Below are positions 49,778-52,078 of a stretch of DNA of 64,000 nucleotides, one piece after another (within the stretch, counting starts at the first letter, position 1; each line of letters begins with the position of its first letter). The stretch is from a virus. The position numbers and the translations under genes were made by a program. The notes beneath the pieces are model-generated. The model searched no databases and had not been told where the DNA came from. It saw only the letters and a program-made list of their open reading frames with translations. Location: the IMG/VR virus record IMGVR_UViG_3300024262_003767; one strand, given 5' to 3'.

Positions 49778-50080
49778 TTAATCTTTCTCAATCGTGAGTG
49801 TTAATCCTTGTTCTTCAAGTGCGGATTTAAAAGGTTTTAATTTATCTTTTGAACCAGTTTTTAAGATACTCGCACCTTTCATATGAACTGTCCAAGCTGT
49901 GTTTTCAGCTTTTTCTGGACTAAAACTCATAATTGATATCAGACATAAAATTACATGATCAAAAGAATTGACTTCATCATTCCATAAAATCAATTTATAG
50001 ACTTTATCATCCGATGGTTCAATACCCGCTTTACTGAGTATTTCTTCTAATGTTTTTGTTATTTCTTTTGTGTCGCTCAT
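49778..50080 (-). CDS. clpS: ClpS N-degron adaptor
   Basis: YKLILWNDEVNSFDHVILCL...EKAENTAWTVHMKGASIL; 4-nt overlap with pncB. Confidence 0.85.
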   Translation of the reverse strand: MSDTKEITKTLEEILSKAGIEPSDDKVYKLILWNDEVNSFDHVILCLISIMSFSPEKAENTAWTVHMKGASILKTGSKDKLKPFKSALEEQGLTLTIEKD

Positions 50081-51375
50081 ATTCCTAATTCCTCTTTATA
50101 TAGTTTAACAGTATTAAAGTTTCCAGTATATTTTCCTTCACTATCAGACAACTTTACACAATCTCTCCAAACTTTCATTCCTTCAGGTAAGGCTTCAGAC
50201 ATCTTAATTACCATATTTAAAGGTTTTGCCTTTTTTAAAGTTTCCATAAAATAACCACCATTTGGATTTGGTATCGATTCCCAATTAAATTGGTTATGAT
50301 AATCTTCATCATAGATACCATTTTGTGAAACCAAAACAACATCGTTTGATAGCCAAGTACCTATACCATAGGAAGATAATATTTTATTTCTCACACAATT
50401 TTCAATTGTTTTAATTTTTTCTATACTATTTATAGAGTCAGAAAATACAATTGTTTTTGGAATCATACCATTAGGCATTTTAATACCTTTATTTATGTAA
50501 TGTTTGATAGTTTTTTCTGCGAATTCAACAGGTTCACCAGAATCTTGACGAACACCGTCAAATAATTTTGAATAAAATAAATCAAAACCTTCAAAGAAAA
50601 TATCTGTTGTATATGTATCAGAAAGTGCAATTCCTAATGCTCCTTTATAAGCATCTACCCAACGACCCATTCCTACACGATTAGCCATCATCACACCGTA
50701 TTTAGCAGCGTGAAACATAAACCATTCGTGTGCCTGAGTTCCAATTGCTTTAATACCATATTTACGAGCAAACATCACATTGGATGTACCAACGATTGTT
50801 TTTGGTGCAACTTTCAAAAATTCTTCAATAACTCTACCTTGGATAAATTTTGAAAATCTTCTGCGGGTTCCAAATTCAGATAATGAAATTCCAAGTTCAG
50901 ATAATTGTTTAAATTTTTCATCCCAAATTTCCATTGACTTTTCTAAGTCAACTTCTTCACCTGAGAAAAGGAAGAATAATTCTGATATTAAAGCCATTAA
51001 TTGAACTTCCCAAAATATAGTTTTGTGCCAAAAACCTTCAATTTCTATTTCTAATACACCATTTTTTTGAGTAACTTTAACTTCATTAGGATCATATTGA
51101 TAACTCCTAAGATACATATAATAGGAAATATCAAAGAATGGAAGTTTACTTTTCAAATGTTCTTCAATTTCTTTGGTAAATTTTAAATTTTTGAAATGAG
51201 CAATCTGTTCTTTTAACTCGGTAGCAAAACCTTTTGGAAATTTACGGGTTTTATCTCTGAGTATGAACTTATACTTAACCTTAGCGTTAGGATAGTGTTT
51301 TAGTATGGCAAATTGCATGAAATACTTATAGGCGTCCTGATCATCAAATTCGGTAATTATTGGTTTAAATCTCAT
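50077..51375 (-). CDS. pncB: Nicotinate phosphoribosyltransferase
   Basis: DQDAYKYFMQ, EFGTRRRFS, VGTSNVMFARKYGIKAIGTQAHEWF, LGIALSDTY, GVRQDSGEP, YGIGTWLSND, KPLNMVIKM, KLSDSEGK. Confidence 0.93.
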   Translation of the reverse strand: MRFKPIITEFDDQDAYKYFMQFAILKHYPNAKVKYKFILRDKTRKFPKGFATELKEQIAHFKNLKFTKEIEEHLKSKLPFFDISYYMYLRSYQYDPNEVKVTQKNGVLEIEIEGFWHKTIFWEVQLMALISELFFLFSGEEVDLEKSMEIWDEKFKQLSELGISLSEFGTRRRFSKFIQGRVIEEFLKVAPKTIVGTSNVMFARKYGIKAIGTQAHEWFMFHAAKYGVMMANRVGMGRWVDAYKGALGIALSDTYTTDIFFEGFDLFYSKLFDGVRQDSGEPVEFAEKTIKHYINKGIKMPNGMIPKTIVFSDSINSIEKIKTIENCVRNKILSSYGIGTWLSNDVVLVSQNGIYDEDYHNQFNWESIPNPNGGYFMETLKKAKPLNMVIKMSEALPEGMKVWRDCVKLSDSEGKYTGNFNTVKLYKEELGI

Positions 51376-51376
51376 A

Positions 51377-52078
51377 TTATAAAAATTTTCCTATTGTTTC
51401 TGATTCAATTTCAATATCTTTTACTGAATTAATAACAAGTATATTATAATCGATTACTAACATTTCAATATATTTATCTAATTCTTCTTCTGTTCCTAAC
51501 CCTTTTGTTGCGGCAAGATTTAAGATAACTTGAAATCCAGCATTGGACAAATCCTTTAAAGTTTCACCTACACAGTAATTAAGTGCTAATCCACCAACAA
51601 TAATTGTTGTTATATTGTGATAATTATAAAATTCAATCAACCCAGTCGAAATTTTACCTTCTTGATCGTGATAAACACTTGTGTAAGGGTGTAGGTGTGG
51701 ATCGACTCCCTTATTTACAATAAAGTTAAAATCTTCAATTTTACCAAGTTCATCAAGAATTTCCGAACCAAATGTTCCTGATTCACAATGCAAATTCCAA
51801 AACATATCAACATTTTTGTGTCCAACTATAGGTGTGAATTGAGGATTTTCTTCAGTTGCTACCCATAACGCATTTTTTGAGTGCATATCTCTTGATATGG
51901 TTTTAACAATTCCTATTAAATTTTGTTTTGCTAATTCTTTACCAATTAGGTGTCCATCAGGTACAGGTAGTTCATTAGGACAGAGTGGAGTAAATCCCTT
52001 TTGAGGGTCAACGTTGTGACTTGCTGTTCTTTCGCTAATCACTCTAATCTTATTCGTATTTTCAAAACTTATATTCAT
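51377..52078 (-). CDS. pncA: Nicotinamidase (isochorismatase family)
   Basis: VDPQKGF, SRDMHS, WNLHCESGTFGSEI, VNKGVDPHLHPYTS, IIVGGLALNYCV. Confidence 0.8.
   Translation of the reverse strand: MNISFENTNKIRVISERTASHNVDPQKGFTPLCPNELPVPDGHLIGKELAKQNLIGIVKTISRDMHSKNALWVATEENPQFTPIVGHKNVDMFWNLHCESGTFGSEILDELGKIEDFNFIVNKGVDPHLHPYTSVYHDQEGKISTGLIEFYNYHNITTIIVGGLALNYCVGETLKDLSNAGFQVILNLAATKGLGTEEELDKYIEMLVIDYNILVINSVKDIEIESETIGKFL

Follow-up and report, generated by a model that had tools for sequence, protein, structure and literature searches.

The locus analysed here raises the question of why a virus should carry two adjoining genes of nicotinamide salvage, and whether they would serve its own NAD+-using enzymes or the evasion of host defences that deplete NAD+. 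The genes lie within a 64,000 nt stretch of viral DNA (the window). The gene positions proposed by an earlier, sequence-only reading proved correct. The pncA gene (nt 51377-52078, 233 aa) specifies a nicotinamidase of the isochorismatase-like cysteine hydrolase type and pncB (nt 50077-51375, 432 aa) a nicotinate phosphoribosyltransferase (NAPRTase); both are on the minus strand and are separated by 1 nt (51376). The motifs quoted for them are all present (GLALNYCV in PncA; GTRRRFS, TQAHEW and KLSDSEGK in PncB), and profile, alignment and structure searches found the catalytic residues of both proteins to be intact. The pair is probably a working two-step deamidating nicotinamide-salvage module of a huge phage with a Bacteroidota-type host, a reading in which the enzyme activities, the hand-over of product to NadD/NadE and the purpose are deduced from sequence.

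PncA passed the cut-off of the Pfam Isochorismatase family (PF00857; 35 bits, cut-off 27) and did not reach that of the NCBIfam PncA equivalog (NF008623; 48.9 bits, cut-off 174), and it is taken to represent a divergent subfamily of nicotinamidase. The catalytic triad (D24/K123/C169) is present and lines up with the motifs of Acinetobacter baumannii PncA in the PDB alignment. Among 49 homologues K123 and C169 are invariant, D24 is found in at least 90%, and the metal ligands D64 and H66 (DxH) and H97 (WxxHC) are conserved. The AF2 model (pLDDT 83.5, pTM 0.85) is of low confidence at residues 95-100, around H97. All six PDB sequence matches are to the nicotinamidase family, five of them under the name nicotinamidase or pyrazinamidase and one, 3r2j, being L. 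infantum Pnc1. By structure, the same two enzyme names account for each of the best 11 Foldseek matches in the PDB (TM 0.65-0.85), which rank ahead of other family members. PHROGs returned one weak match, to an unnamed family. The score below the equivalog cut-off, together with a distinctive N-terminal motif (TASHNVDPQKGFTPLCP), could indicate that the protein is some other isochorismatase-family amidohydrolase, which would leave PncB alone in NAD+ metabolism, working on host-made or imported nicotinate. This is improbable, since the triad and the metal site of nicotinamidases are both complete, and the six sequence matches and the best 11 structure matches all belong to the nicotinamidase family; moreover, the bacterial homologues of PncA adjoin pncB, and JGI names the homologues nicotinamidase/pyrazinamidase. 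PncA thus looks like an intact, functional nicotinamidase that is predicted to turn nicotinamide into nicotinate. A 187-aa ORF elsewhere in the window (nt 11121-11684) resembled the isochorismatase family by eye, a likeness supported by no tool, and was rejected.

PncB exceeded the cut-offs of both TIGR01514 (358.6; cut-off 269.55) and NF003704 (381.1; cut-off 379), and contains both NAPRTase domains (PF17767 and PF04095). H216 (within GTQAHEW), R171-R173, D278-S279-G280 and G337-I338-G339 are invariant among 47 sequences, and the motifs FGTRRR and DSGE/GIGT and the phospho-histidine H216 align with PDB structures 2im5 and 1vlp. All PDB matches were to NAPRTases, the best being that of Porphyromonas gingivalis (2im5, E 1.8e-70). 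A lineage-specific insertion of ~30 aa is located at about residues 349-380, and PHROGs has no family for the protein. By these features PncB is a bona fide NAPRTase and not a Nampt-like enzyme, with the corresponding activity predicted.

The pair had been described as the start of an operon that follows a strong terminator. The start is borne out: an intrinsic-terminator-like hairpin (nt 52130-52166, minus strand), identified by folding and comparison with shuffled sequences, has an A+T-rich stem of 16 bp with a U run after it (dG -15.2 kcal/mol; z = -6.8, with 0/200 shuffles folding equally well). A consensus terminator scan, which expects more G-C pairs in the stem, did not pick it up. The hairpin marks the upstream edge of the transcription unit that pncA opens. 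The unit does not end at pncB, and continues through three more minus-strand genes. A clpS-like adaptor gene (nt 49778-50080) has an ATG that overlaps the pncB stop codon (ATGA), and is therefore co-transcribed with pncB and probably translationally coupled to it. A hydrophobic ORF of 73 aa (nt 49539-49760), kept in relatives, stands between clpS and a gene for a ClpC/ClpA/ClpB-type double AAA+ ATPase with a Clp_N domain (nt 46956-49472), presumed to be the last in the unit. A bidirectional terminator-like hairpin after it (nt 46900-46933, assigned to neither strand) is the presumed downstream edge. The clpS and pncB genes, which overlap in the window, are adjacent in contig L099 and close together in L109; a functional link between ClpS and PncB was considered and, with three lineages only, has been left as an observation.

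Directly upstream of pncA is a gene for a cREC_REC-domain protein (nt 52165-52569, minus strand; PF20274, E 4e-21), with the terminator standing between the two; the same adjacency is found in the related contigs L008 and L014. Sigma-70-like promoters are not enriched in the window (46 observed, 47.8 expected), and the match ahead of pncA shares bases with the start codon. At nt 52103-52110 there is a -7 motif of the Bacteroidota type (TAnnTTTG), but such motifs are not enriched upstream of the window's genes (5 observed, 4.9 expected), and for this reason it was set aside as evidence for a promoter or for the host.

Since the window revealed neither a capsid nor a terminase gene, and no virion hallmark could be named in it, its identification as phage DNA rests on homology to published huge-phage genomes. 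Its proteins of 614 aa and 218 aa, an SbcC-like protein, an M16 peptidase and an S1 protein match LR756501-4, LR745206 and LR756500 at 28-47% identity, a range that for LR756501-4 and LR745206 also takes in PncB. These matches to published phages of 634-735 kb occur at up to five places per record and are partly syntenic, and the genes for the 614-aa and 218-aa proteins are also adjacent in several of them. The conserved 614-aa protein had no PHROG, Pfam or PDB match. Several homing endonucleases and other matches to phage families are also present. Judged by this homology, the window is a relative of the 634-735 kb "huge phages". A megablast search of nt 40000-60000 against deposited phages gave no match, nor did two exact-match scans of the JGI metagenome collection for an extension of the contig; a search of IMG/VR did not find the window's own lineage, the best PncB being 46% identical.

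The order M16 ... cREC-pncA-pncB-clpS-clpC is kept in L008 and L014/L015; contigs carrying P0007 have it too, interrupted by small insertions. The position of the pair is kept in phage relatives down to ~60% identity, and the gene order recurs in independent ENA, JGI, Logan and NCBI assemblies. Both genes are under purifying selection: dN/dS values were 0.09-0.25 in all pairwise comparisons but one (0.32, for pncA of L014 against L012). The G+C content of the pair is adjusted to the phage (25-29%, compared with 41-55% in the bacterial contigs that carry the closest homologues). These observations bear on the suggestion that the pair is of bacterial origin and was joined to phage sequence by mis-assembly or mis-binning, or else is a recent passenger without function. 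The lack of an identified virion gene in the window and the presence of one relative inside an NCBI MAG would agree with such an origin, but it is very improbable given the repeated gene order in independent assemblies, the phage-like G+C and purifying selection, and flanking genes that match published huge phages.

The closest cellular homologues of PncA (49-52% identity) and PncB (51-53%) are encoded by neighbouring genes in Bacteroidota-like contigs. A Bacteroidota-like host is the probable source from which the pair was taken up as a block, and the phage itself is predicted to have a host of this type. A neighbour-joining (NJ) tree and a shared insertion signature indicate that pncB was probably captured more than once by huge phages.

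The presence of NAD+-using enzymes in the same window as the pair, as had been proposed, was confirmed, with some revision. The NAD+-dependent DNA ligase LigA is present, its coordinates being nt 3-1280 (minus strand) rather than 1-1279; the window holds the N-terminal 426 aa of a protein that is 653 aa long in the overlapping contig L017. The Tpt1/KptA RNA 2'-phosphotransferase (nt 8676-9188, minus strand; E 1e-45) and the Nudix protein (nt 3690-4088) are where they had been placed, and an ART-fold protein, a candidate ADP-ribosyltransferase, is specified by nt 27353-28216 (minus strand). Tpt1/KptA consumes NAD+ and releases nicotinamide. LigA also consumes NAD+ but releases NMN and not nicotinamide, so that it drops out as a supplier of PncA, which would be fed only by Tpt1 and by the ART-fold protein, the latter releasing nicotinamide if active. 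With its flank, the window includes a group of conflict-related NAD/ADP-ribose genes (cREC, NADAR, Tpt1, the ART-fold protein and a weak Acb1/2H-like match). PADLOC gave no match for PncA, PncB, cREC or the ART candidate.

The enzymes that lead from NaMN to NAD+ are, as the sequence-only reading had stated, absent from the 64 kb window. Pfam searches of the concatenated ORFs of at least 55 aa found no NadD, NadE, NMNAT, NadR, PnuC or NAMPT, and tblastn searches of the window with phage NadE, NadR, NadM and PnuC were blank. For NadD, no CTP_transf_like match was found among the window's kept ORFs of at least 55 aa or the genes of the 10 kb upstream; for NadE, the window had no NAD_synthase match, and tblastn with the NadE of LR756501 found nothing in the window or in L017. 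Neither nadD, nadE, nadR, NMNAT nor NAMPT was detected in the further 10 kb upstream (L017). Within the ~112 kb known of this genome (the window plus overlapping ENA contigs), pncA and pncB were found and nadD/nadE were not. Completion of NAD+ therefore needs host enzymes or unseen phage genes, and it is assumed that NadD/NadE complete the pathway.

In the proposed mechanism, PncA would convert nicotinamide to nicotinate and ammonia, and PncB would join nicotinate to PRPP to give NaMN, driven by ATP via phospho-His216. The NaMN would pass to NadD/NadE, supplied by the host or by the unsequenced part of the phage genome, to yield NAD+. The net effect would be a greater flux through the first salvage steps during infection, which may keep NAD+ available for the phage's LigA, Tpt1 and ART-fold protein, and nicotinamide released by any NADase would be recycled as a side effect. 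Such upkeep of NAD+ for the phage's own enzymes is at least as likely as counter-defence, although a counter-defence role is plausible. Should the pair raise NAD+ in infection, the phage routes known from experiment, NARP1-3, would be extended to the deamidating branch, and a phage could lean on host NadD/NadE for the last steps. This would also bear on how broadly Thoeris, DSR, SIR2-HerA and similar systems are evaded in Bacteroidota and by environmental huge phages. As a compact two-gene construct, the pair is directly testable.

A dedicated counter-defence function would mean that the pair rebuilds NAD+ from the nicotinamide freed by TIR, SIR2 and SEFIR NADases, with host NadD/NadE completing the route. 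This explanation overlaps with that of a salvage module, the sole difference lying in the selective force behind the genes. In its favour, NADase effectors have nicotinamide as their common product, phages do counter such effectors by NAD+ resynthesis, the probable repeated capture of pncB by huge phages points to recurrent selection, and the window and its flank contain the other conflict-related genes listed above (cREC, NADAR, Tpt1, ART-fold and the weak Acb1/2H-like match). Set against this, the sequence has no feature that links the pair to evasion of defence rather than to general NAD+ upkeep, PADLOC was without a match, the route does nothing with ADP-ribose, and two of the four enzymes required were not found in the window or the 10 kb upstream. 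E. coli has its own PncA and PncB and is still depleted by SIR2/TIR systems, so that boosting the first two steps alone may not suffice; the nearest cellular homologues are in Bacteroidota-type genomes with adjoining pncA and pncB, which suggests that the host may already have the route. It is accordingly a tentative proposal that PncA-PncB forms a fourth NAD+-reconstitution counter-defence working through host NadD/NadE, and equally tentative that it was acquired more than once (as a block from Bacteroidota here, and within nadE/nadD/nadR islands elsewhere), in convergence under NAD+-depleting immunity.

By analogy with yeast Pnc1, which relieves Sir2, the pair might instead clear nicotinamide, which inhibits ADP-ribosyl-transferring enzymes as their product, and thereby keep Tpt1 and the ART-fold enzyme working, with PncB disposing of the nicotinate. 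Both of these potential nicotinamide releasers are in the window, and the cREC gene directly upstream of pncA belongs to a family predicted to act on ADP-ribose 1''-2'' cyclic phosphate (PMC9503650), which Tpt1 forms as its co-product. Clearance is nonetheless unlikely as the main function, as it leaves unexplained why pncB is so tightly conserved and why nadE, nadD and nadR join the cluster in other phages, and the terminator separates the cREC gene from pncA. Salvage of nicotinamide towards NAD+ is the preferred reading, and it is the one compared below with known systems.

The nearest cellular counterpart is the bacterial PncA/PncB entry to the Preiss-Handler pathway, including the side-by-side pncA and pncB of Bacteroidota, which has the same two enzymes with the same catalytic residues; the best solved relatives are the P. 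gingivalis NAPRTase (2im5) and A. baumannii PncA (2wt9). The phage genes differ from the Bacteroidota pair in being in tandem, 1 nt apart, rather than divergent, in belonging to a clpS/clpC operon of a huge-phage genome, in their G+C content of 27-30%, and in the extra insertion of PncB.

Among phage systems, the suggestion that the pair represents a third kind of NAD+ reconstitution has been overtaken, as NARP3, a PnuC plus NadR pathway, has been described (PMC13464706) and jumbo phages with a Preiss-Handler pncB-nadD-nadE cluster and a phage pncA were reported bioinformatically in 2024 (PMC11662467). NARP1 (Adps and Namat) and NARP3 resemble the pair as two-gene phage operons aimed at NAD+ supply; NARP1, however, rebuilds NAD+ from ADP-ribose via ADPR-PP, and NARP3 imports nicotinamide riboside. 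No PRPS-like domain was found in the window, nor NMN_transporter/PnuC or NadR, both of which are present in LR756501. The case of NARP1 illustrates that a phage NAD enzyme may bear a misleading Pfam name (10.1101/2024.02.11.579819). NARP2 (Nampt and Nmnat; NadV/NatV of Vibrio phage KVP40) likewise starts from nicotinamide and PRPP by classical salvage chemistry, but is non-deamidating and reaches NAD+ through NMN in two phage-encoded steps, whereas the pncA-pncB route has nicotinate and NaMN as intermediates and depends on NadD and NadE; neither Nampt nor Nmnat was found in the window.

Closer parallels are seen in huge phages. In LR756501, a phage of 735 kb, and in most of the 25 IMG/VR viral contigs retrieved with PncB, pncA and pncB cluster with nadE and sometimes also with nadD or nadR. 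The island of LR756501 has the order pncB-nadE-pnuC-nadR-pncA and that of contig L109 nadD-pncB-nadE-pncA. Genomes with such islands have the 614-aa protein, M16 peptidase, SbcC-like and radical-SAM genes in common with the window, and ClpS is sometimes adjacent. The islands hold downstream enzymes, which the window's pair is without, and their PncA is of a different subfamily (26-31% identical to that of the window), while their PncB (39-46% identical) forms a separate branch of the NJ tree. The "NAD-jumbo phages", defined by a complete pathway in a genome of >200 kb, include Kuafu_71 (pncB-nadD-nadE), of a clade predicted to infect Bacteroidota, with pncA mentioned as well, and are proposed to make NAD+ both for phage needs and for counter-defence (PMC11662467); the present genome differs from them in having only pncA and pncB in its known part. 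Preiss-Handler genes in giant phages have thus already been reported, and the pair described here is a further functional-looking example of them, in keeping with earlier reports that huge phages tend to carry NAD+ metabolism.

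The two genes lie on the minus strand, where pncA (nt 51377–52078; an ORF of 233 aa) is separated by a single base from pncB (nt 50077–51375; 432 aa), and both these coordinates and every sequence motif that the sequence-only reading had named in the two proteins were recovered. The stop codon of pncB overlaps by 4 nt (ATGA, nt 50077–50080) the start of the next gene, which specifies a ClpS-like adaptor (nt 49778–50080), and this is followed by a 73 aa hydrophobic ORF and the gene for an 838 aa ClpC/ClpA-type ATPase. Directly upstream of pncA is a gene with a cREC_REC domain (nt 52165–52569), and the RNA of the intergenic region forms a hairpin (dG −15.2 kcal/mol, z −6.8) that has an A+T-rich stem of 16 bp and precedes a U run, in agreement with the strong terminator proposed earlier. 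The low number of G-C pairs is the sole reason why a consensus terminator scan missed this hairpin; the scan found similar ones at nt 52984–53015 and, in both directions, just after clpC (nt 46900–46933). Given the flanking hairpins and the overlap and order of the genes, the transcription unit is likely to be pncA-pncB-clpS-orf73-clpC; it does start after a terminator, as had been suggested, but is longer than the two-gene operon first described.

PncB scores above two curated equivalog cut-offs (TIGR01514, 358.6 versus 269.55; NF003704, 381.1 versus 379), contains both nicotinate phosphoribosyltransferase domains, and its PDB matches are exclusively enzymes of this type, the best being that of Porphyromonas gingivalis (2im5, E = 1.8e-70). 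Among 47 phage and bacterial sequences, neither the phospho-histidine H216 (GTQAHEW) nor the FGTRRR, DSG and GIG motifs vary. An insertion of ~30 residues near positions 349–380 (nt 50230–50340) is restricted to this phage and the relative closest to it, the 90% identical P0001, while a shorter one at this position is common to the phage clade and the closest bacterial PncBs. PncA is the more divergent of the two. Its Pfam Isochorismatase score is above the threshold (35 versus 27), but it falls below the NCBIfam PncA equivalog cut-off (48.9 versus 174), and its AlphaFold model (pLDDT 83.5, pTM 0.85) is weak around residues 95–100, which include H97. A misannotation of PncA is nevertheless very unlikely: the triad D24-K123-C169 and the metal site D64/H66/H97 vary little or not at all among 49 homologues, all six PDB sequence matches are nicotinamidase-family entries, and the top 11 Foldseek hits are nicotinamidases/pyrazinamidases, with other isochorismatase-like hydrolases ranking lower. 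The catalytic residues of both enzymes are intact, and the two assignments, based on sequence and modelling, can be regarded as secure with high confidence. The gene pair is real, and the genes for the predicted enzymes look functional.

The window has a G+C content of 27% and many ORFs without family matches, and carries at least six genes of the homing endonuclease type (nt 1422–2321, 5658–6491, 7839–8660, 18364–19362, 37324–38334 and 61267–62148; DUF7487 twice, NUMOD3/EndoI, HNH, GIY-YIG and an HNH of phrog_559). One such gene separates an SbcD-like (nt 62192–62848) from an SbcC-like gene (nt 58112–61279). Extras typical of huge phages include a CCA-adding enzyme, thymidine kinase, dNMP kinase, SbcCD, peptide deformylase, an S1-domain protein (nt 39976–41106), NusG (nt 39403–39912), a ribosome hibernation factor (S30AE, nt 24950–25249) and a PAS/HisKA/HATPase/receiver hybrid histidine kinase (nt 31774–33954); like the last four, a flotillin (SPFH, nt 53034–54539) is cell-like. 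No tRNA, capsid or terminase genes were found within the window. A conserved protein of 614 aa and the 218 aa protein encoded next to it are also neighbours in several published huge phages (634–735 kb and 462 kb; LR756501-4, LR745206, LR756500) at 28–42% identity, and the SbcC-like protein, M16 peptidase and S1 protein match the same records at 35–47% identity, in five places or fewer per record. A phage origin of the window is very probable and a non-phage origin extremely unlikely. Two adjacent paralogues (nt 20791–21897 and 21897–23243) share the N-terminus MGV(S/T)(I/V)GPKIVTDGL; a Laminin_G_3 domain in the second, together with its similarity to virion structural proteins of Vibrio jumbo phages, makes both of them possible tail-fibre or receptor-binding proteins. 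With two overlapping ENA contigs added, the known sequence amounts to ~112 kb.

The gene order M16 peptidase ... flotillin-cREC-pncA-pncB-clpS-clpC recurs across independent assemblies (an NCBI MAG contig, two JGI contigs, and ENA and Logan contigs carrying the related protein P0007), with PncB identities from 82% down to 60%; some of these relatives have small inserted ORFs or homing endonuclease-like genes in the locus. Pairwise dN/dS values for pncA and pncB were 0.09–0.25 in all comparisons but one (0.32). The closest cellular homologues of PncA (49–52%) and PncB (51–53%) are encoded by neighbouring, divergently transcribed genes on Bacteroidota-like contigs of 41–55% G+C, compared with 25–29% in the phage loci. 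In a neighbour-joining tree of PncB (no bootstrap), the window clade groups with Bacteroidota-like bacteria, and the LR756501 and LR756500 proteins form a separate branch. The simplest reading is that the two genes were captured together, long ago, from a host of the Bacteroidota type, one of them then being inverted and the base composition adjusted, and that this pncB was acquired separately from those of other huge phages.

Pfam scans of the retained window ORFs (≥55 aa), joined into pseudo-proteins for the purpose, detected no NadD, NadE, NMNAT, NadR, PnuC or NAMPT, and tblastn with phage NadE, NadR, NadM and PnuC found none, consistent with the earlier statement that NadD and NadE are absent from the window. 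The proposed search for nadD, nadE, nadR and NMNAT in the rest of the genome covered 10 kb upstream, on an ENA contig (L017, k141_1281268) that reaches ~48 kb past the window, and no NAD+ synthesis gene was present there. Its nt 1–7900 include a NADAR-domain gene (TIGR02464, 78.6 versus cut-off 73.7), DUF4326, LemA, two TPM-phosphatase genes and a full-length LigA of 653 aa. Among the NAD+ users previously listed, Tpt1 was confirmed, as was LigA, although at nt 3–1280 rather than 1–1279; the Nudix protein is real, and is Nudix by family only. LigA releases NMN rather than nicotinamide, so that only Tpt1 and the ART-fold protein could supply the substrate of PncA. Proteins of the cREC family are predicted to act on ADP-ribose 1''-2'' cyclic phosphate, and the cREC-pncA locus would, jointly with Tpt1, take care of both Tpt1 by-products. 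Elsewhere, nt 10510–11160 (minus strand) weakly resembles the Acb1 (anti-CBASS) and 2H phosphoesterase families, below the threshold (21 bits versus cut-off 27; E = 2e-4), and a 187 aa ORF (nt 11121–11684, plus strand) shows isochorismatase-like strings by eye (LIIVDVQP, IICGGGVDECY), with no match in Pfam, NCBIfam, PADLOC or PDB.

The best-supported reading is that the pair probably acts as a salvage booster. PncA would convert nicotinamide to nicotinate and PncB nicotinate to NaMN, and NadD and NadE, from the host or encoded elsewhere in the phage, would complete the route to NAD+, so that LigA, Tpt1 and the ART-fold enzyme stay supplied with it. A role dedicated to countering NADases overlaps with this and is plausible, if doubtful, as it requires two further enzymes and leaves ADP-ribose unrecycled; the pair can only tentatively be considered a candidate fourth, convergently acquired NAD+ reconstitution pathway. 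The adjoining cREC gene, from a family with a predicted role in processing the second product of Tpt1, suggests instead that nicotinamide is cleared to relieve product inhibition, but clearance alone would not explain the retention of pncB and is rather unlikely.

NARP1 and NARP2 come from the work of Osterman et al. (10.1101/2024.02.11.579819), and the name NARP3 now belongs to a PnuC and NadR system (PMC13464706), so the 'third flavour' label given to PncA/PncB is out of date. A 2024 study in Microbiome (PMC11662467) reported 174 'NAD-jumbo phages' that encode salvage or Preiss-Handler pathways, describing a pncB-nadD-nadE cluster, mentioning phage pncA and predicting that one clade infects Bacteroidota. 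NadV, NadM and NadR, but not PncA/PncB, are treated in the surveys of Iyer et al. (PMC9503650, PMC7824862). We found no paper testing PncA/PncB as counter-defence. The original interpretation is a reasonable one, though of a kind that is not new, since phage-encoded NAD+ salvage in huge phages was already known.

PncB was also detected by tblastn in LR756500, LR756501/503 and LR756511; in Agrobacterium phage Atu_ph07 and Sinorhizobium phage Phosso the gene carries this annotation. The unannotated 735 kb record LR756501.1 carries an island (nt 11938–20411) of pncB (nt 11938–13158), nadE (nt 13941–14876), pnuC (nt 17711–18280), a nadR-like gene (nt 18384–19364) and a pncA-like isochorismatase gene (nt 19737–20411). 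In IMG/VR, 25 low-G+C viral contigs encode a PncB 39–46% identical to that of the window. In most of them an LR756501-type PncA and NadE are encoded no more than ~7 kb away; at least 16 of the 25 loci (L101, L103, L106, L107, L114, L118 and others) have both genes nearby, and many have NadR downstream. Contig L109 (IMGVR_UViG_3300017971_000200, 161.6 kb) has the order clpS ... nadD-like-radical SAM-pncB-nadE-pncA (nt 7751–12600), a predicted complete nicotinamide-to-NAD+ route. Three diverged phage lineages (window, nt 49778–50080; L109, nt 7751–7993; phage contig L099, nt 9529–9810) have a ClpS adaptor gene beside pncB or close to it, and in LR756500 a ClpP gene follows pncB; the closeness of clpS and pncB may be merely inherited gene order. 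Taken together, these occurrences indicate that the predicted PncA/PncB route is widespread among huge phages and, compared with LR756501 and the IMG/VR clusters, the window carries a pared-down form of different ancestry.
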